A stretch of 64,000 nt of DNA, from the UHGV virus genome UHGV-0072281; one strand, written 5' to 3'. The position numbers were made by a program, and so were the translations under genes. This DNA is from a virus. Shown here in pieces: positions 31,508-51,163 of this stretch. The stretch's first letter is position 1. Each line of letters opens with the position of its first letter. The notes under the pieces are model-generated. The model was not told the origin of the DNA. It saw only the letters and a program-made list of their open reading frames with translations, and did no database searches.

Positions 31508-31827
31508 TGACTGTGAACGACAATATAAAGAAAAAGATTGACGAGATTATAAGCGTCAGTTTAGATAGAATCGAGTTAATTCCCGAGACTAAGGAAATCA
31601 AATACTACGTTCCCGCAGACGAACTATTTCCAGGTCTTCTTAGAATCTCACCAAAAAAGGTTGAAGAGGCTAAACGCCAATTCGAAGTTCGTGGCCTTAA
31701 GGTTGACATTGTTAACAAAAAACATTTTCATGTAACGTATAGCCAGGAAAACATTATTTTTAGTCCTGAGCAAGCGCAACGTAATTTAGATATTTTAACG
31801 AAACGAATGGGGAATAATAACAAATGA
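31507..31827 (+). CDS. hypothetical protein
   Basis: 106-aa ORF. Confidence 0.45.
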
Positions 31828-32864
31828 AACAGTATTTAGCGTTAATGCAAGACATTCTGGATAACGGCGTTGTCAAAAAAGACCGTACAGGTGTAGGGAC
31901 ACTTTCTGTATTTGGTCGCCAACTACGTTTTGACCTGAAAGAAGGTTTCCCATTAGTTACTACGAAAAAGGTTCACCTGAAAAGTATCATTCATGAACTG
32001 TTGTGGTTCTTAAACGGTGACACTAACGTGAAGTACCTGCAAGAGAATGGGGTAAGAATCTGGAACGAGTGGGCGAATGAAGAAGGGGAATTAGGCCCTG
32101 TCTACGGGCAGCAGTGGCGGGAATGGATGGATACCAAACTGGTTTATCTTTGGGACGAGCGTAGCAAAGACGTATTGAGAGAACGAGGATATCGCTACAT
32201 TGGGACTATCGCAAAGGACGATCCTGAAGAAAGTATCGTTATTTATCGCAAATCTCACGACCAGATCAGTAAAGTTATTCAACAACTTCGTGAAGACCCA
32301 GATTCACGACGCATTATTGTTAGTGCCTGGAACGTAGGTGATCTGGACGATATGGCACTTAACCCATGCCATAATTACTTCCAATTCTACACAACAGAAA
32401 TGACGTTGCTTGAACGACTGGATTGGTACGAAGTAAACGAACCGGAAAAATTTGCGAACGCACCACTTATTACTCACGAAGATATCGATAGCGAAGAACG
32501 ACTTCACGAAATTTTAGATCGTGAGGGCATTCCACGCCGTAAGCTTTCATGTTTTTACATGATGCGGAGCAACGATTACCTACTCGGCGCACCGTTTAAC
32601 GTCGCTTCTTACGCGTTGTTAACCCACATGATTGCTCAACAACTCAATATGGTTCCAGACGAGTTGGTTTATAGTGGCGTAGATGTTCATCTTTACTCTA
32701 ACCATCTGGAGCAGGCAAAACTTCAACTTACACGCGAACCTTACCCGCTACCTAAACTGGTTATCAAACGTAAACCTGATTCTATCTTCGATTACAAATA
32801 CGAAGACTTCGAATTGGTTGGGTATCAATCACACGACACAATTAAAGCTCCCATAGCTGTCTAA
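31824..32864 (+). CDS. thyA: thymidylate synthase (ThyA-type) with two internal insertions
   Basis: near-identical blocks to E. coli ThyA as recalled: [56 protein letters not shown] (catalytic Cys), [29 protein letters not shown]; 346 aa vs about 264. Confidence 0.9.
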
Positions 32865-35957: not shown

Positions 35958-38159
35958 TTATCGCGCTTGCGGTAGGAAGATGTTCGCGATTTGTCGTGCC
36001 GGGATAACATCCAACGCAGCGTTGATGAAACTCCCCTGCGACCACGCAGATGCCCAGTTCTGCGCCCAGATAGAAGCGTTAATCTTAGCGCGGGCGATAC
36101 CGTTAGTACGTTCGTACAACGTAGCACCACCTAAACACGCCATAAACTCACTGAACTTGTTATCGTCATCCCAGACCTTAGTGTCGGTCACAATCGGCAT
36201 GTACATGACGCGAGTCAAATCACGAATAGTAACAGAAATATCGCAGGACAGTGGAACACTATCACCAGGACGCCAACCTAGACCACCTACACCGAACTGT
36301 AAGGACATCGACGTTACCATTGCATTACGGAACGAGAAACGTCCTTGAGAGTAACACTCTAAGTAAAACGGATGGGTAAAGGTTTGTTTACCGGTTGCGA
36401 TCGGACACACTGCTGCAATCCAAAACGAGAGCGGGACTAACAAATCCTGGAAAATGTCCAGGTCGTTACCCGACCAACAACGTAAAGGAATGGTTAAAGT
36501 AATGTCATCTCCCGATGCGTCAGAACTATCCCAGACTTCTGGGAAGTCTATCACTGAGGAGTTGTACAACGACATTATCCCCGTCAAATGTAGGGTGTCT
36601 GCAACGCCTCGCATCGCTGACTTAATACCGGAAACTAAAGCATCGACCGCACTAAAACCGGTTTGACCGCCAGACAGGTTAACTTCCAGCGAACGTGCTT
36701 TTGCTGTTGCGGAGTTTACCATCCCGGAAATTTCAGGTTCTTTCGTGGAGTTAGAGAACGAACGCGAAACGGTGTCTTTACCGTCAATACGCCAAGTAAC
36801 CCACTGTGAACCGTTCTTAATCTCCGACAAGACGTTATCGCCAACGTCTGCAACCATATCGGTAAACTCTTTAAAGAACGTTCCTACTTTGGATTCATCT
36901 TTACCTTTGTTCATCCAATCTTGAACTTCAGCAATATCTCCTTCGGTAAGATCTTCTGGATTCTTTTCATCCAACGTAGAGTTCAGCTGCTTAGCTGCCG
37001 CTGCACGTTTCTCCATAGCCTGACGGGTTTTCTCCTGCTCTGACTGAATCTCTGCTGCTCGCTGCTGTAATTCAGTAGCAGTCCCCCCGACCACCAAGCT
37101 ATTACTCATCTGGCCAATCAATTGGTCTTCCTGAGTATCAATGTCCTGTATAGAGGAGGCATACCCACCCTTTTCACTTCTGGCAACTTTCTCCAAGTCG
37201 TATAACGAAACTTCAAATCCTTCTGCTTTCTGTCGTACACGATCGCTATAAGTAGCATTATAGTAAAACGCGCGCAAACGACTGGCAAACAACTCTTCAT
37301 CGTCGCCGGATTCTACACGAATCATATCGATGGTTTTAGCCTGATAGTTCGCCAAGGTCTGGTAACGGTTAATCATTCGGTAAATGTCAAACTCACCATT
37401 CGCTTTCCAGACTTCTGGTAAGGATTTATACCACTCTTCACGATCTTTATGGTAGCTATTTTCTTTGCTTTCGGTATCGTAACCCAACGCAAAAGTCCCT
37501 AACACACCCGTTGGCACTAAACGACGATAAATTAGCTGGGTGTTCAGGATGTTTTGCACAGCGCGTAAATACAGATGCATTGCGGGCTTAACGTAATAGT
37601 ATCTTGACGTTTCTTTATTCAGTGCTGCCGAAAGAATCCTCGGTGTAATCAGAATCACCGCGAATGCTACAGTACCAACCGTCGCCCAAATAGCGGCCGC
37701 ACCGATATACGAAGCTGCTGTTCGAATAATTCCTGGATAGTCACCTGTACGTGCGAGGTATGCCAGGTTAGAATCGTACATGTTCGCAAAGAACGAAGCC
37801 ATACCCAGATACTTCGGCTTACCGAAACGACAATGAACGTAAAATGAGTTTTGGCTAATGCTTTCGTAGTAATACGTCCCTAAACGATAAGACCCTGCGG
37901 CTGAGGAGTTATAAAAGGATTCACTACCGCTCTTAGTCGCATCGGGTTGTGCAAACGCGCCTGTTGAGGAAGGGTCTGCAAAAAGTGTAAACTGGGGCGG
38001 ACTATTAATCGCTTTACTGCCACCGACTGTGGTGTCTTCAAACGACAACATACCACCGGAATAGCGGCGCAAGGCCAGGAAACGTTCATCTCGACCATCG
38101 ACTGCGCCATTAAATAGGTTTTTGACCCAGCTTGAGTCGTTAACTGTTCTAGCGTCCAC
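35958..38159 (-). CDS. hypothetical large protein (733 aa, probably structural)
   Basis: long ORF directly downstream of the giant gene on the same strand. Confidence 0.55.
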   Translation of the reverse strand: MDARTVNDSSWVKNLFNGAVDGRDERFLALRRYSGGMLSFEDTTVGGSKAINSPPQFTLFADPSSTGAFAQPDATKSGSESFYNSSAAGSYRLGTYYYESISQNSFYVHCRFGKPKYLGMASFFANMYDSNLAYLARTGDYPGIIRTAASYIGAAAIWATVGTVAFAVILITPRILSAALNKETSRYYYVKPAMHLYLRAVQNILNTQLIYRRLVPTGVLGTFALGYDTESKENSYHKDREEWYKSLPEVWKANGEFDIYRMINRYQTLANYQAKTIDMIRVESGDDEELFASRLRAFYYNATYSDRVRQKAEGFEVSLYDLEKVARSEKGGYASSIQDIDTQEDQLIGQMSNSLVVGGTATELQQRAAEIQSEQEKTRQAMEKRAAAAKQLNSTLDEKNPEDLTEGDIAEVQDWMNKGKDESKVGTFFKEFTDMVADVGDNVLSEIKNGSQWVTWRIDGKDTVSRSFSNSTKEPEISGMVNSATAKARSLEVNLSGGQTGFSAVDALVSGIKSAMRGVADTLHLTGIMSLYNSSVIDFPEVWDSSDASGDDITLTIPLRCWSGNDLDIFQDLLVPLSFWIAAVCPIATGKQTFTHPFYLECYSQGRFSFRNAMVTSMSLQFGVGGLGWRPGDSVPLSCDISVTIRDLTRVMYMPIVTDTKVWDDDNKFSEFMACLGGATLYERTNGIARAKINASIWAQNWASAWSQGSFINAALDVIPARQIANIFLPQAR

Positions 38160-38204: not shown

Positions 38205-41200
38205 TTAACCCGCACGTCTAACGTTAAGCTGTCGTGCTGGCTGTTCAACGGACATTTGTCGTGATGCTGAGCCTGCTGGTGCCATAGGTTGGGTCGATAC
38301 GGTGTTTTGTACCGGCTGCGGACGTTGTTTAAGAATCGTGACAATCTCTCTGAGATACCCCGCCGATTCTTTCGCAACAGCCAACTGCTGGACACTAATC
38401 GGATCACCGCTACTGAGTGTAGGCCCGTTTTGTGCATCAGAAGTAACCGCAGGTGCCGGTTTACTCGTTGCTGCTACGCGCTGCACAGCGCCTTCTTTCA
38501 CCTTCTCGACATCTTCTTCAGGCAACCCTTCGTTTCTAGCTCCAGCCGCAACGGTCTCCGCAATCGTAGAGGCGTCGCCGCCAGCACTACTACCGCCAGG
38601 TGACGGTACTGCCGGACCACCACTGGTTGCAGCTTTGACATTGTCTGCACCCATCGCACCTTTCTCTGCTAACGCATCGTCACGACGCGCAGCATTCGAT
38701 GCGGGCAAGTTATCCGTCGCTCCAGAAATTGATGGATCGTTAGCTGCTCCTGCTGCTACCGCTGGAGAGGAGGCAACCGCAGGCGTTAGCCCTTTCACCA
38801 TGTCTTTCGTTGAAGCTGGGTTAGCCGCAATTTCGTTTGTCGCCACAGCACCCATACGGCGGTTCAGTTCATTAATAACTTCGCCAACAGTACGAATACG
38901 AACAATCTGTTCGCCTCGCATTTCGTAGAAGACTCCCTTATTACCTCTAAGGATTTGAGGAGTAATACCTTCTGCTTTGTCGGCTGGCATGTTCGGATTC
39001 TGCCGCCATGCATTAAGGAACTTCTTACCACCGCCTGGACCCAAGAAGTGATACAGATACGCAACAGCCGGGGGCGGTTCTACACCACCCAGGTCTTTCT
39101 GCGCCTGCATGATATTATCACGAATAAACTGTACCCCGAGGATGGTATTTGCCCACGGGTCATACTGGTTTACTTGCGGAATACCGTACCGACGAGAATA
39201 CCCCTTCATCATTCCAGACCACGTACTGTCGATGAACTGGAACAACCCTGCTGCTGACGCACCTGGGTTCTTGACGCCGTATCTGAAACCAGATTCAGCT
39301 TTCGCCATCGCAATCGCAATCGCAGGCGGAACACCTAAGGTATTTGCGACATCTGCAATCATTGCTTTAACGCCTTCTACGTTAGGTGTCTTACCACTAC
39401 CCAGTTTACTGATTGGATATTTCTCAGCCAAGGTTTTGTAATCACCTTCTTTGACGTCCCCGAGTTTAATCCCGGATTGGCCCGTAGAGAACTTCGCGTA
39501 ATTGCTGATCCCCATCTCACCCACAACTTGAGATAAGTCACCCGGTGTACCGTAAGACGACCCACCGTTTGGCAAGTACCCATCGTTAGACGCTGTACCC
39601 CAATCAACGACACCTTTAAAGCGTTCTTTGCCATCTTCGTCGGTTTGGTACATTCTCGTCGCACGATCGGCTTTCTGCCACTTCGCACGTTTACCTGCTG
39701 CGGGAGTAGAGCGCAGGGTGTTACGAACAGCCAGGTCAGGTTCTTTTGACAGTTCTTTCAGGTTGGCAAGTTCAGTAGCAACAGAACCTGCATCAGTGTT
39801 TGCTTCCTCGCCTAGCGGGTTGAATGGAATCTCCCACACGGACTGTCGAATACCGCCCTTCATGTTGTAAGCGCCACGAATCATCAACGCCAATTCGTAC
39901 ATGAACCCACCGGATACTTTCAATTCGGTAGGGTCTGCTTGCGGAATGTAACGTTTCAGACCAACGACGTAGGTCATATACGCCGGTAAGAAACGGTTGT
40001 AGAACCAGTTCTTACAACGCTCCTCTTTAGGACCACCTATCAAGTCAGGCGAGATAACCGCAATGGCTTCTTTCCAGTTGCCTTTATAGGTACAGTTCTT
40101 CACATCAATGTCTTTCAACACGTTCTTCTCTAACAACGTGAAAAGATTACGCGTTGTTTGGTTGATAGTAACCGCACCGTAGGTTTTCCACCTGACCGAT
40201 TCCAGGTCTTCCAAATCGCTTTTCTTCGGTAATGAATGCCAGTCAACTTGGATTTGAACCTGCTCAGTCCCGTCTTCCCATCCTTCAACCTTCGCAACTT
40301 TCTCGTTACGTTCAGCATCCGCATTCGCCAATACCTGACTGGTTTCAGCAACGGACGCAATTTTGTGGCCTTCGACAGCGTCACGCATACCTGAACGTTG
40401 TTTCCGTTTGTCGTCAGTACGCATGTTGATTGACCGCCACACACGTTCCTGTGCTTCGACAACCTCTTCCCCTGACAAGAACTCTGCCGGAGTAAAGGTA
40501 ACGAAATCCCACGCTTTAGAGAACCAACCCTGGTTAACTTTACGCGGGTCAGTCAACGAACGGAATTCCGCAGAATCTTTACCCATCTTCATTTTGTTGT
40601 AGAGGGTAATCATATCCGCTTTCGACACTTTCTTCGGATCACCAACATCTGCCAAAGCGATATCGTTATCCATAGACTTCAGTGCTGAAATCCAACGGAG
40701 GTAAATCGGTGCGAAACGTTGTAACATAAACGCAGTAAATGCTAACATCTCACCACGTTCTTCCAAGTTTACACCAAACCCTTCTGCGAGTTTCTTCACG
40801 TCTTCGGAAGACAAGCCACGTAATTGTGCTTCACCCCCTTCGGTATACGAGACGTAAGGTTTCAAAGCGTCTTCTAAATAACGGGCTTTCATACCGTCTT
40901 CAGAAGACCACTGGTCGTAGTCACGGAAACCGTATTGTGCCAGACGCATATAGTCGAGGTACTGCGCTTTCACACGGGTAGCGCATTTATACGCCCAATA
41001 ACCCAGACCAGCGGCAGTCGCACCGATCACAATTGCAGGCCAACCCACCGCAGCTACCACCGTAGATGCAGCCGAGGCTACCGCAGTCACCGCCGGAACC
41101 GCTAAACGCTGTACGGCAAACTTACCAACATTCCACGCTGCTTTACCGAGGAACCCGGTAGGTTTAAAAATACCCCACTTCGCAACTTTACCCAGTATGG

Positions 41201-44200
41201 AACCCACCGTACCTAAGATACTCACGATTGGTCCTACCAACGGTAGCCCTTTGAGGAAGTCCATCACCCCGCCTTTACGTCCTTTCTGTTCGGCGGATTT
41301 CTTGGCTTTCTCTTCTTCCTTAGAACGTCTACGACGACGGAAGAATTGGAAGTAGTCGCGTTTTTCATCATTGGCTGCCGGTTTGTTACGTTGTCCGAAC
41401 TTACTGAACATCGTACGAATCAAGCCATCAGGCGCACCAGCACGTTCCGCAGAGTCGCGCATGGTGTTAAACCAGGACATTTCCTGGAGGTTAACCATCC
41501 GGTTTAAACGTTCCAGTAATGCTGAACCAACACTTTTCGCTTTCTGCTTACCTTTGTTGATAACGCGTCCTGCGCTATCCGTTGCGGTTTCGAAATCCTC
41601 TTTCGCTGCGTTAATCACGCGTGTTGGAGAAACCTTACCACGGGCGTATAAGTGTTGACGGTAAAACTCAGCAACGTCATCGTCACGGCCTGCTAAACGA
41701 GACTCCGTCCGATAGCGAGTACCGATATCGTAGCGTGGATCGCGGAAGCTATCTACCGTTTCGCCAAAGCGTCCACGGAAACGGTCAAACCAGCCTTTAC
41801 CCGCAGCACCCCAACGAGACAGTCTATCACCAACTCCCTGACGGAAACGTGAGAATCGGTCACGTTGTCTGCCTCGCCAATCCCGGAAATTCTGGAAATA
41901 GTCTTTAAACCCGTCGCGGAAATCCTTAACGCGGTTAAGCATCCCTTTGATAGATTTCGACCCAACGTTTTTCTCCAGTTGCTCCGTCCAGGATTCATCT
42001 TCAGGCTCACCATCTAAACGACGGTTAAGGAGTTTATAGATGCGAATCAGGATATGGTTGGTCTTACGGCCATTCGACCAGGAGAACATGCTGAAACCGC
42101 CGCCAGAACCCCCATCCTTACGATTCTGCCACCACCGGGTAAGCGGGTTGTCGGTCGCTAACTCTTTGAATTTCTCAAAGCCACGTTTTGCATTGTTCCA
42201 CAAACGAGCGGGCATTCCCGTTACACGGGAAATCATGCTTTGTAAACGTGTTTTCTCACTGCCTTCAGGAATCTCGTTAAGCCACTCACGTGCTTTCTCG
42301 AAGATAGACGCTGCTCTTGGTGAGATTAGACCAATAAGTTTCTTCGGTAAGTTAACGGCTTTGTTTACCGCTGTACCTGCTTTACCGGAGATATACTGGA
42401 ACAGGGCCTGGAGTTTACCGCCTTTATAGAAGCGCAGTTTACCCGCAGCCGCTAAGTCCGCCGCTGCGAGAATCAAGTTCCCGGCTTCGTCAACAATATC
42501 ACGACCCAGCTTAATGTCGTCTAACGAGCTGAGTTGTACCAGCTTGTTGGTTTTAGGGTCAGCCTGATAATACTCACCTGCCTCTAAACGGCTTCCTTGT
42601 AAAACAACATTGCCTTTCTCGTCGTAGATGTCTCGAACACCAAGAACGCCTTTCCCGAACGCTACTGCTGAATTCCAGCCTGTGGACAGCGTACCAGTAA
42701 CTAAACCTTTCAGTCGTTCAAAAACACCTGGACCGTCAGAAGACCCACCGGAGAATTTCCCACGGATAAAACTGCCCAGTGACTGTAAACGCCCTTTCCC
42801 TCTCAGGAACATGTTCTTCGCAAAACGACCAGCGCCCGTACCGGTGTCCCAAAGTACACCCGCCCAACGACGGAACAGCCCACTTTCACCAAGCACAATG
42901 CGCTTACGTTTGCGTTTGTTACCGGTACTACCCGCGTCTTCAGATGCGTCACCCTCACCGTCACGACCACCACCTAAGCTTGCCAACAGAATACCTTCTT
43001 CATCCATGTTCTTGACATGTTTCAGAATTTCCTGCACGGTGTTGGATTCGGATTTGTTACGGATAGCATCAACGATTCTATCAAACTGTTGCTCTAAACC
43101 CGCATTAGTGTCAGGCCGTTCGCTTAACAGTTCAACAAAGTTGGTGGATTTTTCACCGTAGAGGACAGCAGCAAGTTGTCGTGCTGACAGCCCACGGCCA
43201 CCACGTCCACCTTTACCTTTAACGGTGTCAATAGTCGACTCGTCACCGGTTACGGAAGCGTCTACACCCAAACGACGTAAGTAGTCACCTAGCGCAGAAC
43301 CGTTTTTCAGTTTGCGCTGGATTTCTTGCTCACGGGTTAACGAACGACCAGAGCGAGTTTTCCCCATGGCCAGGTCGTTGTATAGCGTATACGGATCGTT
43401 AATGTCTTTATCTACATCAAACCGATCGTTCTTCGCATCGTACTTAAAGATACCTGCGTCACGTAACGCATTCTCGCCGTAGATAATTGAGGCTTCGTCT
43501 ACCGTGTTTTGACGTGCACGAATTGTTGACTGAATAGCTGAAATCTTACCAGCAATCTCGTTGCTCAGTTCGTGATGACCGCCTGCCAGTTCTGAAGACC
43601 GTGCTTCTAAGACCGCCTGAATCGCTTCTACCGCGTTCGCATTCATGTAACGATACATGTGCATCGGGTCTTTCAGCAGACTGCCTACGTCGAATGCCTT
43701 ACCTTCAGACGCACGGGATTCGATATAGTCCGCCAGCGCCTGGCGAGTTTTCGAATCCAGAGTTTTGTCTTTGTCGATAAAGTCAACGGTTTCGTTAATG
43801 TACTGCTGTAAACGTTTACGCTGTTCGTCATTAGCAACTGCCTTACGTACGCGATTGCCAATAACTTTACGATCCACCATACCTCGCGTGGTCAGGTCAT
43901 AAACCTGATCGTGGTGTTCGCCATATCCACGACGAATAGATTTGTTAATCTCCGTCAGCAAGGTCGGGATGACTTCCGTGATGCTAAGATATGCTTTACG
44001 GTCGAACTTCGCTGCTGCTGATAACGCCTCTGCTGAACGTTCTTCTAAAGCTAATCCCTCACGACGCAGCGGTGTCACTAACCCCATCTCGTGCATTAAA
44101 CGGAAGACAGTGGCCAATGGACCATCTATCTCACCAGCAATCGCTGAGTTAGAGATAGAAGATAAGTTACCGAACCCGTAGCGTGCCAACTGAAGCCGTT

Positions 44201-45338
44201 TCATGACTTCTGGGTTCTTTTCTAACTCACTGCGTGTCCAGTTCTGTAAACGTTCTACTTGCGGTTGTAAGAATCGTTTTGCTAACCAACCACCGGCAAA
44301 CCCTACGACTTTACCTCGGCTATTCGTACGACGACGTTCTGGCGACAGTGAAGAACTGTCTTCCATGTCGAAGTCGTCTTCCTGACCCATTGACAGAACT
44401 TGTTCTAATAGCCCACGTCCGTCACTGAAGATATTCGAAATCTTTTTCTTCGCGTTCTCACGGATTTGTTCAACGAACGAATCTGCGTAACGTAAGGGGT
44501 TCATCCATTCGGCAGCTTTACGTTTTACGTTAGCCCAACGAATTTCAGAGAATTCCTCTTTTGCATAATCCGGCAACGCGGTGTTTTTAACAATCGCTTC
44601 AAGTGCCGGAGTGTTACGGCTAAACTCGTCCTGTTTAAGTTTAGCAATATCTTGCAACGCGAATAACGTACGGTATTGCAGCTCTAGCTGTTTACGCTGA
44701 ACGTTAAGCATCACCCCACGACTTAAACTGGTCGTCAGGTTAACGTCTTTCGCAATACCGATAACCGTCTGGAACAGCGCATCGGACTTCATGTCCTTGA
44801 TGGTGTCACGAAGACGGTCTTCTACCATCCCTTCCTGAACTTCACGTTGCTGTTCAGGTGTTTGTGGGGTACCCGCAAAAACAGTGTCTAACTCACGATC
44901 CATTAATGCCTGTTTAGGATCGTAATTCCCGTAATCGTACTGGTCGCTTTTCGCCCATTTATCGATCTTACGGGTTACACTGTCAGGCAAATACCGTTTT
45001 AGGGTTGGGCCTAATTGACGAGCTTGTGCCTTCACCACGCGGGAGGTCTTTTCAATCTCGTCTTTCGTATGGGCCAGAATGTCTTGACCTGCGGCTTTGA
45101 CGTTCTTATAACCTTCATAAGCGTCAGACGCCGGTTTTGGCATTCCTTTTAAAATGACCTGATCACGTTTATTTTCGGGCCAGATAGTCGACAATGCCGA
45201 CTTACGGGCAGCACGAAATGTGTCCATGACCGGGTTACGCGATTGGTCTTGTTGACGAGGGGGCTCATCAAAATCGTCCCAGTCGTCCATGTTATCAAGA
45301 TCGATTTCATCGAAATCGTCTTTACCTTTTTTAGCCAT
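38205..45338 (-). CDS. giant virion-type protein (2377 aa) with lytic transglycosylase (SLT) domain, TM segments and low-complexity regions
   Basis: SLT motif AKAESGFRYGVKNPGASAAGLFQFIDSTW (about 38900-39330); hydrophobic block LPLVGPIVSILGTVGSILG...AIVIGATAAGLGYWAY (about 40980-41290); acidic N-terminus DDFDEIDLDNMDDWDDFDE; Arg-rich repeats; Ala/Pro/Ser-rich C-terminus. Confidence 0.7.
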   Translation of the reverse strand: MAKKGKDDFDEIDLDNMDDWDDFDEPPRQQDQSRNPVMDTFRAARKSALSTIWPENKRDQVILKGMPKPASDAYEGYKNVKAAGQDILAHTKDEIEKTSRVVKAQARQLGPTLKRYLPDSVTRKIDKWAKSDQYDYGNYDPKQALMDRELDTVFAGTPQTPEQQREVQEGMVEDRLRDTIKDMKSDALFQTVIGIAKDVNLTTSLSRGVMLNVQRKQLELQYRTLFALQDIAKLKQDEFSRNTPALEAIVKNTALPDYAKEEFSEIRWANVKRKAAEWMNPLRYADSFVEQIRENAKKKISNIFSDGRGLLEQVLSMGQEDDFDMEDSSSLSPERRRTNSRGKVVGFAGGWLAKRFLQPQVERLQNWTRSELEKNPEVMKRLQLARYGFGNLSSISNSAIAGEIDGPLATVFRLMHEMGLVTPLRREGLALEERSAEALSAAAKFDRKAYLSITEVIPTLLTEINKSIRRGYGEHHDQVYDLTTRGMVDRKVIGNRVRKAVANDEQRKRLQQYINETVDFIDKDKTLDSKTRQALADYIESRASEGKAFDVGSLLKDPMHMYRYMNANAVEAIQAVLEARSSELAGGHHELSNEIAGKISAIQSTIRARQNTVDEASIIYGENALRDAGIFKYDAKNDRFDVDKDINDPYTLYNDLAMGKTRSGRSLTREQEIQRKLKNGSALGDYLRRLGVDASVTGDESTIDTVKGKGGRGGRGLSARQLAAVLYGEKSTNFVELLSERPDTNAGLEQQFDRIVDAIRNKSESNTVQEILKHVKNMDEEGILLASLGGGRDGEGDASEDAGSTGNKRKRKRIVLGESGLFRRWAGVLWDTGTGAGRFAKNMFLRGKGRLQSLGSFIRGKFSGGSSDGPGVFERLKGLVTGTLSTGWNSAVAFGKGVLGVRDIYDEKGNVVLQGSRLEAGEYYQADPKTNKLVQLSSLDDIKLGRDIVDEAGNLILAAADLAAAGKLRFYKGGKLQALFQYISGKAGTAVNKAVNLPKKLIGLISPRAASIFEKAREWLNEIPEGSEKTRLQSMISRVTGMPARLWNNAKRGFEKFKELATDNPLTRWWQNRKDGGSGGGFSMFSWSNGRKTNHILIRIYKLLNRRLDGEPEDESWTEQLEKNVGSKSIKGMLNRVKDFRDGFKDYFQNFRDWRGRQRDRFSRFRQGVGDRLSRWGAAGKGWFDRFRGRFGETVDSFRDPRYDIGTRYRTESRLAGRDDDVAEFYRQHLYARGKVSPTRVINAAKEDFETATDSAGRVINKGKQKAKSVGSALLERLNRMVNLQEMSWFNTMRDSAERAGAPDGLIRTMFSKFGQRNKPAANDEKRDYFQFFRRRRRSKEEEKAKKSAEQKGRKGGVMDFLKGLPLVGPIVSILGTVGSILGKVAKWGIFKPTGFLGKAAWNVGKFAVQRLAVPAVTAVASAASTVVAAVGWPAIVIGATAAGLGYWAYKCATRVKAQYLDYMRLAQYGFRDYDQWSSEDGMKARYLEDALKPYVSYTEGGEAQLRGLSSEDVKKLAEGFGVNLEERGEMLAFTAFMLQRFAPIYLRWISALKSMDNDIALADVGDPKKVSKADMITLYNKMKMGKDSAEFRSLTDPRKVNQGWFSKAWDFVTFTPAEFLSGEEVVEAQERVWRSINMRTDDKRKQRSGMRDAVEGHKIASVAETSQVLANADAERNEKVAKVEGWEDGTEQVQIQVDWHSLPKKSDLEDLESVRWKTYGAVTINQTTRNLFTLLEKNVLKDIDVKNCTYKGNWKEAIAVISPDLIGGPKEERCKNWFYNRFLPAYMTYVVGLKRYIPQADPTELKVSGGFMYELALMIRGAYNMKGGIRQSVWEIPFNPLGEEANTDAGSVATELANLKELSKEPDLAVRNTLRSTPAAGKRAKWQKADRATRMYQTDEDGKERFKGVVDWGTASNDGYLPNGGSSYGTPGDLSQVVGEMGISNYAKFSTGQSGIKLGDVKEGDYKTLAEKYPISKLGSGKTPNVEGVKAMIADVANTLGVPPAIAIAMAKAESGFRYGVKNPGASAAGLFQFIDSTWSGMMKGYSRRYGIPQVNQYDPWANTILGVQFIRDNIMQAQKDLGGVEPPPAVAYLYHFLGPGGGKKFLNAWRQNPNMPADKAEGITPQILRGNKGVFYEMRGEQIVRIRTVGEVINELNRRMGAVATNEIAANPASTKDMVKGLTPAVASSPAVAAGAANDPSISGATDNLPASNAARRDDALAEKGAMGADNVKAATSGGPAVPSPGGSSAGGDASTIAETVAAGARNEGLPEEDVEKVKEGAVQRVAATSKPAPAVTSDAQNGPTLSSGDPISVQQLAVAKESAGYLREIVTILKQRPQPVQNTVSTQPMAPAGSASRQMSVEQPARQLNVRRAG

Positions 45339-45367
45339 AACGTTTAATCCGTATCAGGAGATTTAGC

Positions 45368-46993
45368 GTGAATAAACTTAATTGGGTTGACTTTTATCTG
45401 CTCAATGTAAACAAGTCTCTTGTGTCGCGATTACGACCCGTCACGACCACAGATACTTTTCAAGGGTTGACAAAAAACTTTCACCCTGAAGGGTTGTACT
45501 CCACGGAGATATTCGGTCTTACGGGAAGTGAAGCCCGAGACTCAATGTTTTCTTACATTGATATTAAATTAGATATCATTTCGCCGACGGTGTGTTTGGC
45601 GTTATTCCAACTAAAACAACTCTACGAAGAAATTTGTTCTGGAAAACGCTACGCAACCTGGAGCGAAAAAGAAAAAGATTTTGAACCGGCTTTGCCTGGC
45701 GACGCTGGCGCAGATACCGGTTTTAACTTTTTCCTTAGTCACTACAACGACTTAAAACCCGGACGTAACGAATCGTTACAACGTGACGAAACGGTGGATT
45801 TCTTCGAGAAGTTCCGTCCCGTGAGTCTTAGCCGCTATGTTCTCGTATTACCCGCGGGTTTACGTGATTTGGTGGTTAGACAAGACGGTAGGGAACAGGA
45901 AGAGGAAATCGGTGGGTTATATCGTCGTTTGATTTCTTTGGCCAGGGCGATTCCTGACCGCGCTACACGGGTTGAATTAACGAACCCTGTACGATGGAAA
46001 CTCCAACAAACCTTTAACGAAATCTGGATGTACTTCTTTAACATCCAGGACGGTAAAGGTGGCTTCCAACGTCGTAAAGTGACGTCGCGTAAACTGATGA
46101 ACGGGACACGTAACGTATTGTCCTCATTCTCCACAGGCTCTAAATGCATGGGGCGTGAGGATGCGATTCGACCGACCGACACCAAAATTGGTTTGTATCA
46201 GGGTCTGAAAGCGTTGCTACCTGTTGCGCAATACCAGATACGTGAACGTTACCTCGGTAACATTCGTGCTGGCGATGGCAACCTTTATGGCGTAAACACC
46301 AAAACGCTTAAACGCGAGTTCTTGGAGGTTGGGGGTCGTGTTTACGACACCTTTACCACAGACGACGGTATCGAAACATTAATTAACCGGATGGAAGCTC
46401 GCGAGCTTCGTCATCAACCGTTAATGATTAACGATACCCATTACGTCGCGCTGGTCTACCAAGACAACAAACATTTTAAGGTGTTCTACGATATCGACGA
46501 ACTGCCTAAAACGTTTGACCGTAAAAACGTCCACGGAATGACCCTGGTAGAATTACTCTACTTATCGGGTTACGAACTGTGGAACAATTATTTCGGTTTC
46601 GTTACACGTTATCCCGTCACCGGTCGAGGCTCGACGTACTCATCGACCATAAGATTGGAGACCACCACGTCATCTTTATACCTAAAAGAACTGGAGGATG
46701 ACTGGGAGACTGAAAAGCCACACGGAGCTATCAGTTATCCTGACAGGACGGTTCCGACCTTTGTCGAGTCGATGGCACCGCACCCGTCACGATTGGGTGG
46801 CTTAGGGGGTGACTACGATGGTGACACCGGTTCACTTAACGCGCCTATGTCGCAAGAAGCACTCGAGGAAAACCGTAACTGGATACACTCGAAGAACTAC
46901 TGGTTCGATTCTGACGGGAATTTCAAAATCAATCCTGTCAACAACGTGATTAAACGTGCGACGCAAGCGTTATTAAAGAATCCAAAAGGCTAA
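45368..46993 (+). CDS. multisubunit RNA polymerase beta-prime-like subunit, N-terminal part (split beta-prime; GTG start)
   Basis: blocks parallel E. coli beta-prime as recalled: HPEGLYSTEIFG (ERDGLFCARIFGP), VLVLPAGLRDLVVRQDGRE..GGLYRRLISL (VLPVLPPDLRP..DLNDLYRRVINR), GKGGFQRRKV (GKQGRFRQNLLGKRV), GGDYDGDTGSLNAPM (NADFDGDQMAVHVPL); zinc-ribbon cysteines absent. Confidence 0.75.
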   Translation: MNKLNWVDFYLLNVNKSLVSRLRPVTTTDTFQGLTKNFHPEGLYSTEIFGLTGSEARDSMFSYIDIKLDIISPTVCLALFQLKQLYEEICSGKRYATWSEKEKDFEPALPGDAGADTGFNFFLSHYNDLKPGRNESLQRDETVDFFEKFRPVSLSRYVLVLPAGLRDLVVRQDGREQEEEIGGLYRRLISLARAIPDRATRVELTNPVRWKLQQTFNEIWMYFFNIQDGKGGFQRRKVTSRKLMNGTRNVLSSFSTGSKCMGREDAIRPTDTKIGLYQGLKALLPVAQYQIRERYLGNIRAGDGNLYGVNTKTLKREFLEVGGRVYDTFTTDDGIETLINRMEARELRHQPLMINDTHYVALVYQDNKHFKVFYDIDELPKTFDRKNVHGMTLVELLYLSGYELWNNYFGFVTRYPVTGRGSTYSSTIRLETTTSSLYLKELEDDWETEKPHGAISYPDRTVPTFVESMAPHPSRLGGLGGDYDGDTGSLNAPMSQEALEENRNWIHSKNYWFDSDGNFKINPVNNVIKRATQALLKNPKG

Positions 46994-46996
46994 TCA

Positions 46997-49900
46997 ATGT
47001 TGCTCATTAAACAGTTTAACCAACGCTTCTCTGTGCGTAAAACAGACGAGTTTGGTAATCCGAGGATTATCCCGCTCGAGAAGCTCCAGATACCACGAGG
47101 CTCTATACTGCACGTCGTGGATCTCGATCAGGTGGTCTTAGCGCCACCTGCTACGCTGGAAATCATCCAGCCGTTGGAAAAACCTGCACAAATTCGCCAC
47201 CACTTTAAACTTCCCGAAGAAGGGATCAGTGGGCATCCACGTAACAAACCTGTGCAGGGGCAAGAACGTGCTATCTTTGCGTACCATCGCGCAAACCGTC
47301 CAATTCGTCGTCTGACTTCAGACGACCTGATTCGTAAAGACTTAAAAGTTCTCCTTATTGAGAACTATACACCGATGTTATCGCACTACTATTATCCAGA
47401 CACTCAACTAGCCTGGTACGATAGACTGCGTAACATCCAGCTGTTAATGACTAACCAGTTCAAATACGACACGCAAGAATACATGCGTCAGAACTACTTC
47501 GTGATTGTGCTGGGGTCAACGTTACCGTCTTTCCAGAAGTTCCAAACGACGTATAACGATCGTGTTAAAAGCAAGATTGAAAAGTTCCAGGACTTTAACC
47601 TGCTGTGGTTATTGGAACTGTTCGCTTGGGCATACGGTAAACAGTCTGATTCTCTGTTTGCAGGAATGGACTTAACGCAACTGTCTCGAATGAACTTCAT
47701 CTTCACCCACAACAGCGGCTTTACGTCGATGAACATGGGTGTCGTGGAGAAGATGCGTAAATCGTCCGGTGGTCGTTTAAGTGACGATCAGATGGCCAGG
47801 ATGTTCTATCGTACGTTAGTGCGTGTAATGACACAAGCACCGTCTAATGCGTACGAAGCTGAATTCCTGACACCGGAAGGTGATGAACGTATCTTTGTTA
47901 AGGACATCGAAGAGGATGCCGTTGACGTCGTTGACGATACAGACGTTGTTAACGACGCTGTGGTTGAATCGGATAACGCTTTCGATGAAAAAGAAGACCT
48001 CGTTATTGAGGAGCCGAAAGAAGACGTTAAGCCGACGACTATCGTTATCGAAAAAACGATTGCTCACGATGACATTATCAAACAGGAAGCGCAGAAACTG
48101 GCTGAGGCGGGCCGCTTAAGCTCCAAAGCGTATCAGTTCCTGTCTGATTCGACCAAACGTTTCGTTCAGTTACCAAACCCGTACAACCCGAAAGAGACTT
48201 ACGGTGAAGCATTAACCATTCACGAAAAAGACATTGCCGTGAAAGCGGAACCGAAGAAAGTCCAGCGACTGGTTACGGATGAAGGTTGGGCAGAAAACGT
48301 TACCGACCAAATGGTGAAACAATACAACCAGACCATGATGAGTAAAGACGTACTGGCAGCAGTCGCCAGTTCTCAACGTCTTGGTTTGGCTATTCACAAC
48401 CACACGATCGAGAAAGAGATTTCCGTTACGGGAACTATCGAACACCACACCCTGCGTGTTCAACCGATTGGCGGTGAACCGACGACGGTACGTTTCTCTA
48501 TCCCTGGCTTAACTGAAGATGGTACCTGGGTAGCGAACGGTGTTGAATACACCATGCGTCGTCAGCGTGTAGACGTTCCGATTCGTAAGGTCGCCCCAGA
48601 CACCGTAGCGTTAACTACCGCTTACGGTAAAAACTTCGTACGTCGTAGTGACAAAGTCGCAAACGACTACGGCCGTTGGTTAACGAACGCGATTATCACG
48701 CGTGCCGTAGACCCGACCAACACGGAGATCACCGACGCACGACTCGCGAACGTTTTCGATCCTACTGAGAAACTTCCTCGTCAGTATACGGAGATTGCAC
48801 GTCGTATCGCCAGCTTTAATGCAGGCGGGTATATGTGGAATTTCGATTATAAAGAAGCGGTTAACTTCTTTAATGACGAACAGCTTACTGACGCAAACAA
48901 CGTTGAGATGTTACCGGTTGCGAAACGTCCACGCAGTGAAGTTATTGTGGTGATGGATACCAAGTCCATGCTCTATACCGTTAAGGGTAAAGAGTGTACA
49001 CCGCTGGGCACCATCTCTGAAGTGCTTGGTTTCAGTAGCCAGAAAGCGCCAAGAGAGATGACCGAGCTTTCACTGATGGGCAAATCGCTCTCACTGGGCT
49101 TCATCTTCTCGTTCTATTTAGGTCTGCAAGGGATGCTTAAACATTTCGGCATTCAGTACGAAATCGTCCCCGTTGGCCAACGTGTAGATAAGAGCACGTA
49201 CGATTCTATTATTCGTCTCCAGGACAGTAAGTTCCTGGTAACGTGTGATAACGATCAGCAACGAATGATTCTACACGGTCTGGATAAGTACCTGAAACAC
49301 CTGGTAGCTTATACCGAGTCCGAAGTCGACCGCGAAGACATTTACCTGAACTTAATACGTGATGCAGATGGGCTAACTCCACGCTACATCAACGAGCTGA
49401 AACAAATGCGGGCCGCGTTTGTTGATGACATGCACGCACGTATCCTCAGGAAAATGGGTGAACCGGAAACCTTTATCGGGCTATTGGAACGTTCTAACGA
49501 ACTGTTACAAACCGACCACTCTTTACCGGAGATTAACGGTGATGAGATGATGTTCTTAGGGAACCAACGTATTTCCTACCACATCTACACTGCGATGGTC
49601 AGGGCGATGCGTAACTACAACAACGCACCGAACAGTAACCGTAAGTTCGAACTTACTCAGGACATGATTTGGGGCGCAATTAACTCCGACCCGTCTGTTC
49701 TGTTAGCGCCGGGTGCTAACCCTATCCAGTCGATTAAAGAGAAAGACGTTATCACCATGGGTGGTACGGGTGGCCGTAACCGTAAAACAATGGTTTATCA
49801 CACGCGTGAGTTCCAACCGAGTGACCTGGGTATTGTTTCCGGTAACACGGTGGATAACGGTGATGTAGGTATTACTGCTTTCGCCACTAACAACCCACGT

Positions 49901-51163
49901 TTCGATACCGTTGACGGCACAACCTATAAACGGGATGAAAAGAACCTGAAACCGAGCGATACTCTGTCATTTATAGATGGTCTCGTACCAGATACCCTGA
50001 TGGACGACGCTAAACGTCAAAACTTCGTTGGGATTCAGTTAGGTTCTGCCACCAGTTGTAACGGCGCTACCACTACCCCTTATCGTACCGAACAGGAGAA
50101 ATTTGTCGCTCACCGTACGTCGGTGAAACACGCACGCGTTATTGATAAAGCAGGTAAAATCACCGGTCTGTCTAAAGACCATATCGAAATTACGTACGAA
50201 GATGGAAGTAAAGAAGCCTTTCCTCTAGGGCGCTGGTTCGGCCCCCACGAAGGTACCTTCTATCCGCACACCCTGGTGACTCGCTGGAAAGCCGGTGACA
50301 AACTCCCGGCCGGGGCAGTCATCACTTATAACGAGCAACACTTTGAACCCGATATCTACGACCCTACTCAGGTTTCCTGGAAAAACGGGGTGCTGGCTAC
50401 CGTCGCTTTAATCGAGGCTGAAGAAGTAATCGAAGACTCCAATGCTATTTCTGAACGGTTCGCGAAGAAAATGGTTGGGCAGGTTACTAAGCTGAAAGAA
50501 GTGGTGATTAACAGCAACCAGATGCTCCTGGAAATCGTTAACGAAGGGGAACACGTTGACGTCGACACAATCCTATGCACATTTACTGACGACCTTACGG
50601 GGGATATGAGTACCTTTAGTAAGGAAGCAGCACAAACGTTGCAAAGTTTAAGTTCGTACGCACCTCGTGCTGGGGTTCGTGGTATCGTGGATAAAATCGA
50701 AGTCGTGTATCACGGTGAAACCGAAGACATGACGCCTTCACTGGCAGAACTGGTACGCAAATACGATCGTATTCGTCGTAAAGCAGCGTTGGCTGTTAAT
50801 CGTGGCGATCCGGTATCAGGGAGTGTTAATGGGGATTACCGTGTAGAGGGTGTACCGTTAGCCTTTAACTCGCTTTGTGTTCGATTCTTTATTACGCACG
50901 AAGTTGAAATGGCCGCAGCGGATAAGATGGTTATTGCTAACCAGCTGAAAACCACTGTACAAGAAGTGATGTACGGGGAAAACAAAACAGAAGATGGCGA
51001 CGACATTGACATTTTGTTCGGTCGCGATTCTGTCGACGCACGTATCGTAGGTTCTATCCAACGAATCGGTACCGCAAATGCTGTGGGTGAACAAGCAGGG
51101 ATTCTTATCGGTCGTATTCTCGACGGCGAGTCCGTGCCTGAGTTACCAGCGACGCTTAAATAA
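46997..51163 (+). CDS. large hypothetical protein (1388 aa) co-transcribed with beta-prime-N; possibly another RNAP subunit or virion protein
   Basis: starts 4 nt after beta-prime-N stop; no unambiguous RNAP motif found by eye. Confidence 0.55.
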   Translation: MLLIKQFNQRFSVRKTDEFGNPRIIPLEKLQIPRGSILHVVDLDQVVLAPPATLEIIQPLEKPAQIRHHFKLPEEGISGHPRNKPVQGQERAIFAYHRANRPIRRLTSDDLIRKDLKVLLIENYTPMLSHYYYPDTQLAWYDRLRNIQLLMTNQFKYDTQEYMRQNYFVIVLGSTLPSFQKFQTTYNDRVKSKIEKFQDFNLLWLLELFAWAYGKQSDSLFAGMDLTQLSRMNFIFTHNSGFTSMNMGVVEKMRKSSGGRLSDDQMARMFYRTLVRVMTQAPSNAYEAEFLTPEGDERIFVKDIEEDAVDVVDDTDVVNDAVVESDNAFDEKEDLVIEEPKEDVKPTTIVIEKTIAHDDIIKQEAQKLAEAGRLSSKAYQFLSDSTKRFVQLPNPYNPKETYGEALTIHEKDIAVKAEPKKVQRLVTDEGWAENVTDQMVKQYNQTMMSKDVLAAVASSQRLGLAIHNHTIEKEISVTGTIEHHTLRVQPIGGEPTTVRFSIPGLTEDGTWVANGVEYTMRRQRVDVPIRKVAPDTVALTTAYGKNFVRRSDKVANDYGRWLTNAIITRAVDPTNTEITDARLANVFDPTEKLPRQYTEIARRIASFNAGGYMWNFDYKEAVNFFNDEQLTDANNVEMLPVAKRPRSEVIVVMDTKSMLYTVKGKECTPLGTISEVLGFSSQKAPREMTELSLMGKSLSLGFIFSFYLGLQGMLKHFGIQYEIVPVGQRVDKSTYDSIIRLQDSKFLVTCDNDQQRMILHGLDKYLKHLVAYTESEVDREDIYLNLIRDADGLTPRYINELKQMRAAFVDDMHARILRKMGEPETFIGLLERSNELLQTDHSLPEINGDEMMFLGNQRISYHIYTAMVRAMRNYNNAPNSNRKFELTQDMIWGAINSDPSVLLAPGANPIQSIKEKDVITMGGTGGRNRKTMVYHTREFQPSDLGIVSGNTVDNGDVGITAFATNNPRFDTVDGTTYKRDEKNLKPSDTLSFIDGLVPDTLMDDAKRQNFVGIQLGSATSCNGATTTPYRTEQEKFVAHRTSVKHARVIDKAGKITGLSKDHIEITYEDGSKEAFPLGRWFGPHEGTFYPHTLVTRWKAGDKLPAGAVITYNEQHFEPDIYDPTQVSWKNGVLATVALIEAEEVIEDSNAISERFAKKMVGQVTKLKEVVINSNQMLLEIVNEGEHVDVDTILCTFTDDLTGDMSTFSKEAAQTLQSLSSYAPRAGVRGIVDKIEVVYHGETEDMTPSLAELVRKYDRIRRKAALAVNRGDPVSGSVNGDYRVEGVPLAFNSLCVRFFITHEVEMAAADKMVIANQLKTTVQEVMYGENKTEDGDDIDILFGRDSVDARIVGSIQRIGTANAVGEQAGILIGRILDGESVPELPATLK

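Follow-up and report, generated by a model that had tools for sequence, protein, structure and literature searches.

A giant phage protein with an embedded lytic transglycosylase domain, a probable tail tape measure or ejection protein of SPN3US-like jumbo phages

What is the role of a phage protein of 2377 residues that combines a lytic transglycosylase domain, a hydrophobic stretch and low-complexity regions? This question is raised by a gene on the minus strand of the virus genome UHGV-0072281, of which a stretch of 64,000 nucleotides (hereafter the window) was analysed. An earlier interpretation made from the letters alone (hereafter the sequence-only reading) had proposed an inner-body or tail protein that is ejected and digests peptidoglycan during entry, as known for giant virion proteins of jumbo phages. 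We now consider, with a probability of about 75%, that the protein is a lysin-bearing tape measure or ejection protein of the tail lumen in a phiKZ-like (SPN3US-type) jumbo myovirus. The coordinates of the gene, of its domains and of the neighbouring genes are collected in Table 1.

The open reading frame (ORF) cannot be due to chance, since the probability that a frame stays open over 2377 codons is (61/64)^2377, or about e^-114. The encoded protein has a computed mass of 263 kDa and a pI of 9.4. It is matched over its full length by PHROG 3201 (phrog_3201, profile length 2408; 2093 bits), the best-scoring stretch aligning residues 1–1036 with profile positions 1–1024. A tblastn search of 50,697 phage genomes returned 61 records that cover at least 80% of the protein. 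The top matches are those of the SPN3US/Asesino/phiEaH2 group, which are about 61% identical along the full length; in SPN3US the match is SPN3US_0239 (gp239; 61.1% identity over 100% of the length). With phiKZ gp181 the identity is 22.8%, and the aligned pieces cover 50% of the query, spanning residues 35–2181. Length is tightly kept among 76 database homologues (2199–2572 residues, standard deviation 94). As judged from these comparisons, the giant protein is a full-length member of the known gp181/gp239 family and displays every family feature that a sequence can reveal. The gene, its domains, its intact active site, its orthology and its synteny are observed in the window itself, and the gene is one of the usual, conserved structural genes that an SPN3US-like phage carries, not a new one.

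At the DNA level the situation is different. A megablast search with the gene against the 50,697 phage records gave one record with a 42-base match only, so that a close cultured relative is lacking at this level, and proteins with 78–98% identity were found only in unannotated metagenomic or Logan assemblies. A 111-kb Logan contig (SRR24039119) carries a copy of the gene that is 94.4% identical in nucleotides and 98% in protein, with the same neighbours. Over the giant gene, the two copies differ by 325 synonymous and 52 non-synonymous codon changes, and 331 of the 401 nucleotide differences fall in third positions. This pattern shows purifying selection on the frame over its entire length, low-complexity parts included. 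Several ORFs on the opposite strand within the gene (e.g. 38302–38928 and 42628–43161, both on the plus strand) were rejected as shadows of the minus-strand frame on the basis of the same third-position substitution pattern. The SRR24039119 copy belongs to a 90% cluster of 635 member sequences, and the phage lineage of the window seems, from such sequence matches, to be common in public data. This lineage appears to be an undescribed one, different from SPN3US at about the genus level, within a well-described phage group. The window also holds two virion RNA polymerase (vRNAP) subunit genes and genes for a prohead protease, a tail sheath, MazG and thymidylate synthase, in an order that resembles that of SPN3US, and a gene adjoining the tail sheath gene may, from its position, encode a tail-tube-like protein. 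Between positions 36000 and 46000, the G+C content is 0.49–0.51 across the giant gene versus about 0.42–0.46 in most of the window. The GC skew is strongly negative over the gene, which fits coding on the minus strand.

The layout recognised in the sequence-only reading, i.e. an acidic N-terminus, a hydrophobic block of roughly 90 residues, an SLT domain and a tail rich in Ala, Pro and Ser, is present in all its parts, the block being 94 residues long. The SLT domain had been placed about 370 residues from the C-terminus, and the Pfam profile search supports it with a score clearly above the gathering cutoff. The catalytic residue, Glu2015, lies 362 residues before the C-terminus, and the equivalent positions in the relatives are found 331–367 residues from the end. 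The pair E2015-S2016 aligns with the catalytic E115-S116 of the phiKZ endolysin gp144, and the YL-HF-GPG motif downstream is retained. Across 57 aligned homologues, which are otherwise only 25–60% identical, the E-S, GL-QF and Y..HF.G.G columns show little or no variation. In the AlphaFold2 (AF2) model, the predicted local distance difference test (pLDDT) score is about 86–96 over most of the domain. The best PDB match of this domain with Foldseek was gp144 (3bkh; E 8.9e-8, root mean square deviation of 3.4 Å over 208 columns), and the next local matches, with a probability of about 1.0, were other lytic transglycosylases. Sequence searches of the PDB with the giant protein and with phiKZ gp181 gave SLT-domain structures only (gp144 and phi6 P5); by this search the remainder of the giant protein is in no solved structure. 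The active site is intact, and the domain has the sequence and fold characteristics of the SLT/GH23 family-1 lytic transglycosylases. By analogy with phiKZ gp181, the one family member for whose domain lytic activity is known, the SLT domain of the giant protein is predicted to cleave murein.

The muralytic module is not the same in all lineages of the family. Swaps were noted among members P0042–P0045, P0084, P0102 and Goslar gp204. In P0042–P0045 a GH19/chitinase-like module (PF00182) replaces the SLT domain, as confirmed for P0042, and in Goslar gp204 a weaker GH19-like match was seen, below the Pfam threshold. P0102 carries a phage lysozyme (PF00959), and one relative of 3314 residues has SLT plus VanY plus CHAP. 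Goslar gp204, the one member with a swap that was examined, retains the upstream hydrophobic block.

The hydrophobic block is the only region of the whole protein in which 19-residue Kyte-Doolittle windows reach 1.6 or more. It could offer two to three membrane-spanning segments, as suggested by its hydropathy. Its position, at about 57–60% along the protein, is kept in SPN3US, Asesino, Machina, pEa_SNUABM_11, Goslar gp204 (residues 1255–1335), Kodama and FLC1-1B. In the AF2 monomer model the block has pLDDT values below 50. It is immediately followed by a mainly helical domain, of which the first 100 residues (1451–1550) are the most conserved non-enzymatic region of the family. A Foldseek search with the C-terminal half against PDB and BFVD returned lytic transglycosylases and the C-terminal halves of gp181-like proteins as its only matches, so that residues 1451–1865 are left without a match of known fold.

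The part of the protein that precedes the block is predicted to be largely helical. Asp accounts for 16% of the first 100 residues, and the long helices that follow the acidic N-terminus (residues 36–400) are a candidate for an extended tape-measure segment, as far as the model can be trusted. The AF2 model gives 59% helix for residues 1–1350, with modest confidence (mean pLDDT of 60 for the N-terminal half), and predicts a small beta domain at residues 900–985. Foldseek of the N-terminal half against PDB found nothing meaningful (best E 1.6). Two short motifs, KNTALPDYAKEEF and ILIRIYKLLNRR, stand out by their conservation in the family and may be docking sites, e.g. for the terminator, the tube initiator or an assembly factor. 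The sequence-only reading had also described an Arg-rich repeat region around RDWRGRQRDRFSRFRQG, which sits at about residues 1152–1168. The enrichment is real, with 21% Arg, 14% Phe, 14% Gly and 13% Asp in residues 1130–1200, but the repeat is not: a BLOSUM self-comparison gave no 12-mer self-matches in this stretch and Tandem Repeats Finder found no DNA tandem repeat. The region is thus a compositional bias, and conservation within the family is lowest here. At the other end, residues 2161–2377 consist of 20% Ala, 10% Ser, 9% Gly, 9% Val and 8% Pro, and the C-terminal tail ends in a conserved QL-V...L..I...R motif region.

Evidence on virion and tail location, muralytic activity and essentiality comes from the literature on the orthologues. 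SPN3US gp239 (259.1 kDa) has been named tail tape measure protein and was seen in virions by mass spectrometry; among mutants with tailless particles, it went undetected in the particles of a gp64 mutant, and in those of a gp255 mutant its level was reduced more than 10-fold (PMC5105663, PMC10052503). The phiKZ protein gp181 is referred to as a 'structural peptidoglycan hydrolase', and its C-terminal enzymatic domain was reported to lyse outer-membrane-permeabilised Pseudomonas with 60,000 U/mg (Briers 2008, as summarised in PMC5380687). It is essential by transposon sequencing, with zero transposon insertions across 6.7 kb (PMC12676376). In the 2026 cryo-electron microscopy (cryo-EM) atlas of phiKZ, the spike is gp164, the tip gp163.1, the hub gp101 and the rings gp88 and gp182, and the main text makes no mention of gp181 (PMC13250141). 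The Goslar cryo-EM work assigns the hub, spike and wedge density to other proteins, and gp204, the Goslar homologue, does not occur in its main text. Because an essential tail protein is invisible in symmetric reconstructions, the gp181-type protein fits a symmetry-mismatched protein of the tube lumen, a location that is reached by elimination. The homology with gp239 and gp181, the intact active site and these data on the relatives bear out the earlier idea of a giant virion protein that digests peptidoglycan at the entry of a jumbo phage. The identity as tail tape measure, which is taken from the literature, goes beyond the sequence-only reading, which did not name it.

How could such a protein work? 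A tape-measure-like mechanism is proposed because the order of the modules, namely a helical region, a hydrophobic stretch and a muralytic domain, is that of T5 Pb2, and because T4 gp29 likewise has a transmembrane (TM) plus pore module. TM segments are reported to be common among tape measure proteins, and here a hydrophobic, TM-like segment is present at a position that is conserved in the relatives. A few copies, probably three, would reside inside the tail tube of roughly 200 nm. By a volume estimate, three copies would fill about 38% of a lumen of 40 Å x 2000 Å, which is physically possible. The N-terminal part with its long helices would run along the lumen and could act as length ruler, and the C-terminal part would be at the baseplate or hub end, beside the gp182-like ring encoded by the next gene; that the giant gene adjoins the gene of a hub-proximal ring was counted in favour of the tape measure. 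Upon contraction of the sheath, the spike complex would depart and the giant protein would be expelled C-terminus first. The SLT domain would then cut murein glycan strands locally by means of Glu2015. The hydrophobic block, perhaps with the conserved domain after it, may insert into a host membrane, and the inserted part could help to build a conduit for DNA and co-injected virion proteins.

Several observations weigh against this proposal. At E <= 0.1, neither Pfam nor NCBIfam gave a match to a tape-measure, spike, fibre or membrane-protein family, and the lack of the first is unfavourable here. The classical order of tail chaperones followed by tape measure is not found, the upstream neighbour being an RNA polymerase (RNAP) gene and a tail-chaperone frameshift pair being absent. 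As a continuous helix, 2377 residues would extend over about 357 nm, an excess of about 1.8-fold over a tail of about 200 nm, and the AF2 model shows several compact domains (residues 350–690, 900–985, 1451–1865 and 1935–2190) rather than one long coil. The protein being too long for a ruler and partly compact, at most a part of it can measure length. At 1.5 Å per residue, a ruler of 200 nm needs about 1333 residues, and residue 1357 is where the hydrophobic block starts, which is suggestive numerology only. The comparison of the two phages for which tube layers are available (46 layers and 2252 residues in Goslar, 43 layers and 2237 residues in phiKZ) speaks neither for nor against a ruler, with just two data points. 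The hydrophobic block is weak in phiKZ gp181, with a maximum Kyte-Doolittle value of 1.22. Lastly, no report resolves gp181 or its homologues in the tail lumen, and for the giant protein itself the presumed virion location and activity derive from its orthologues.

The excess length, the predicted globular domains, the missing tape-measure signature in Pfam and NCBIfam and the lack of scaling with the number of tube layers would also be expected of a protein that is ejected from the tail lumen or the baseplate as a 'pilot', with a lysin and a membrane-active segment, tail length being set by another factor. Such a protein could be likened to T7 gp16 or other ejectosome proteins, and the SLT domain is homologous to that of the T7-like 'internal virion protein D'. 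However, neither for SPN3US nor for phiKZ has another protein been put forward as tape measure, the length of the family members is narrowly conserved, the N-terminal 400 residues form long helices and the gene is located beside a hub-ring gene, as is usual for tape measure genes. We therefore regard a pilot protein without ruler function as unlikely, although it is the strongest competitor of the tape measure.

A more specific role can be imagined for the hydrophobic block and the domain that follows it (residues 1357–1865). Nucleus-forming jumbo phages first deliver their genome into an early-infection (EPI) vesicle that is derived from the inner membrane. The two modules might anchor the tip of the tube to the inner membrane and seed or gate this vesicle, in which case the large size and the extra domains of the tape measure would serve an entry process specific to chimalliviruses. 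We found no paper that links this protein family and the EPI vesicle, and we consider this role a long shot.

It is quite improbable that the protein punctures the cell as a needle-like device in the middle of the baseplate, analogous to T4 gp5, as was proposed for phiKZ gp181 in 2008. A review table still lists gp181 as 'needle-like cell-puncturing device, putative trimer' (after Briers 2008 and Fokine 2008), and a muralytic domain is present as in T4 gp5. However, the spike, tip, hub and rings of phiKZ are made of the other proteins listed above (PMC13250141), and the density of hub and spike in Goslar is fully taken by other proteins as well. Moreover, AF2 models only 4% strand, without an OB-fold or a beta-helix, and no Pfam family of spikes or hubs was matched.

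Even less probable is a location in the head, where the protein would belong to an inner body, be packaged with the DNA and be injected with it. In favour of this, the genes on the other side of the divergent junction are those of vRNAP subunits, which are carried in the head and injected, and this phage group does have giant head proteins that are ejected. This was one half of the earlier 'inner-body or tail' proposal, of which the tail half stands. The inner-body half does not, as tailless, DNA-filled heads of SPN3US contain gp239, which is 61% identical, either not at all or at a level lowered more than 10-fold. The A/S/G-x-E motifs of the prohead-protease type number 41 versus 39 expected from composition, which shows no sign of selection either way. 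The least credible assignment is that of a tail fiber, for which there is only the annotation itself ('tail fiber protein' in phrog_3201 and most GenBank records), against the predicted helical structure, the enzymatic domain and the hydrophobic block, the lack of fibre-type beta structure, the fact that phiKZ fibres consist of gp131-type paralogues, and the naming of gp239 as tape measure by the SPN3US authors.

The finding mainly corrects annotation, from 'tail fiber protein' in most records to tape measure or ejection protein with a built-in lytic transglycosylase. The gp181/gp239 type is also the one large tail protein that goes unmentioned in the 2026 phiKZ and Goslar virion papers. A map of its parts (helical N-terminal part, hydrophobic block, domain after the TM region, SLT domain and disordered tail) may help to locate the protein in asymmetric reconstructions, and may help in tests of how jumbo phages cross the cell envelope.

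Table 1. Features of the giant gene, its product and its neighbourhood in the window (residue numbers refer to the giant protein).
Feature	Residues or length	Position	Strand	Basis and remarks
Giant tail protein gene	2377 aa, ATG start	38205..45338 (stop codon included)	-	ORF and homology
Acidic N-terminus	1-30	45249..45338	-	net charge -8; start MAKKGKDDFDE fits family consensus MAKxDDxDD
N-terminal long alpha-helices (candidate tape-measure segment)	36-400	44139..45233	-	AF2: 76% helix, helices up to 45 residues
KNTALPDYAKEEF motif	251-263	44550..44588	-	columns K251-F263 invariant or nearly so in 57 family members
Helical domain	350-690	43269..44291	-	AF2 pLDDT about 80-92; without PDB fold match
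ILIRIYKLLNRR motif	1096-1107	42018-42053	-	invariant or nearly so in 57 homologues
Arg/Phe/Gly/Asp-rich stretch	1132-1195	41754..41945	-	AF2: single 64-residue helix
Gly/Ala-rich hydrophobic block (candidate membrane segments)	1357-1450 (94 residues)	40989..41270	-	Kyte-Doolittle
Mainly helical domain right after the block	1451-1865	39744..40988	-	AF2 pLDDT 80-94; well conserved
SLT/GH23 fold	1935-2190	38769..39536	-	AF2 model and Foldseek
Pfam core PF01464	1997-2082	39093-39350	-	E 2.3e-8, 34 bits versus gathering cutoff of 21.3
Catalytic Glu2015 codon	2015	39294-39296	-	aligned to phiKZ gp144 E115
C-terminal tail	2191-2377	38208..38768	-	Ala/Ser/Gly/Pro-rich, poorly conserved
Divergent intergenic spacer	29 bp	45339..45367	.	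two back-to-back ribosome-binding sites (Shine-Dalgarno, consensus CTCCTGAATTGGAA)
RNAP beta-type subunit gene		45368..46993	+	phrog_2986 'RNA polymerase beta subunit', E 7e-235
Second RNAP subunit gene		46997-51163		next to 45368-46993
gp182-like ring gene, downstream and co-oriented	733 aa	35958..38159	-	phiKZ gp182 homologue: E 1e-37, 25-26% identity
Virion structural protein gene	187 aa	35369-35932	-	phrog_2935; Pfam DUF7941 on Logan homologue of identical length

The gene neighbourhood is that of the family. The order in which a vRNAP subunit gene diverges from the giant gene, which is in turn followed by the gene of the gp182-like ring, is kept in 10 of 10 relatives (phiKZ, Asesino, SPN3US, Machina, CR5, pEa_SNUABM_11, Kodama, FLC1-1B, Goslar and the Logan contig). 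By position, the gp182-like gene corresponds to Goslar gp203 and to SPN3US gp238, which is an essential tail gene. The 2026 models of phiKZ and Goslar from cryo-EM place the gp182-type protein between tube initiator and hub, where it forms the second hexameric ring. In databases, this family is still labelled hypothetical or, as phrog_3181, of unknown function. Next to the ring gene, the small virion structural protein gene takes the position of SPN3US gp237 and Asesino gp259.

On the other side, the RNAP beta-type subunit gene is the family and positional counterpart of SPN3US gp240 and phiKZ gp180. The sequence-only reading had found its divergent arrangement with the giant gene, only about 29 bp apart, to be notable. 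The distance is indeed 29 bp, but it is an ordinary conserved feature of the clade: the spacer also measures 29 bp in SPN3US, Asesino and Machina, 23–32 bp in CR5 and pEa_SNUABM_11, and 75 bp in phiKZ, and its sequence is conserved too (CTCCTGAATTGGAA-like). In the window, a TATG overlaps the start codon of the giant gene. As the 29 bp are made of two ribosome-binding sites, they leave little room for a promoter, and the promoters of both genes would lie inside the flanking coding regions. Such phages use their own RNA polymerases. The spacer is a conserved compact junction, not a special regulatory feature.

Some further observations concern the surroundings. Goslar (NC_048170) has annotated group I introns (169269–169645 and 211817–212245) beside its RNAP subunit genes gp247 and gp206/gp207; in the window, the ORFs of the two RNAP subunits are contiguous, without a Goslar-like intron gap. 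The thymidylate synthase ORF (31824–32864, plus strand, 346 residues) matches phrog_160 over 276 profile positions only and a second ThyA PHROG in two stretches, which suggests that it carries an insertion relative to a typical phage ThyA. No tRNA genes were found in the whole 64-kb window.

The closest known proteins are SPN3US gp239, Asesino gp261 and the phiEaH2 orthologue, with 2372–2379 residues and 61% identity over the whole length. Their modules are arranged in the same order, with equivalent positions for the hydrophobic block and for the catalytic residue of the SLT domain, and they share the 29-bp divergent RNAP junction and the gp238-like gene downstream, although about 39% of the residues differ. 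The phiKZ gp181, a putative tape measure, is likewise a giant essential tail protein (2237 residues) with an SLT domain about 330–360 residues from the C-terminal end, and its gene has the same synteny, diverging from the RNAP subunit gene gp180 and followed by gp182. It differs by its low sequence identity (22.8%), by a much weaker hydrophobic block and by an intergenic gap of 75 bp.

Outside the family, T5 Pb2 offers the nearest functional parallel, as it combines a helical ruler, a hydrophobic stretch of about two TM helices and a C-terminal muralytic domain (PMC10038345). At infection Pb2 is driven out of the tube, makes a channel in a membrane and releases its C-terminal muralytic domain into the periplasm, where it digests peptidoglycan (PMC10038345). 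In contrast to the giant protein, with which it has no sequence homology, Pb2 is half as large, belongs to a non-contractile tail, has a zinc metallopeptidase instead of a transglycosylase, and is cleaved proteolytically between the hydrophobic stretch and the enzyme, such cleavage being known, of the two, for Pb2 only. In the myovirus tape measure T4 gp29, a TM segment precedes a helical bundle, which forms the genome-translocation pore, and the block of the giant protein likewise precedes a conserved, confidently folded and mainly helical domain. However, gp29 has only 590 residues and no enzyme, the T4 lysozyme being on the spike protein gp5, and no sequence or fold match between gp29 and the giant protein was detected. 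The catalytic domain itself is homologous to that of the phiKZ endolysin gp144 (3bkh; phmmer E 2e-15, 27% identity by Foldseek). In gp144 it is part of a protein of 260 residues with an N-terminal peptidoglycan-binding domain, whereas here it is embedded in a structural protein of 2377 residues.

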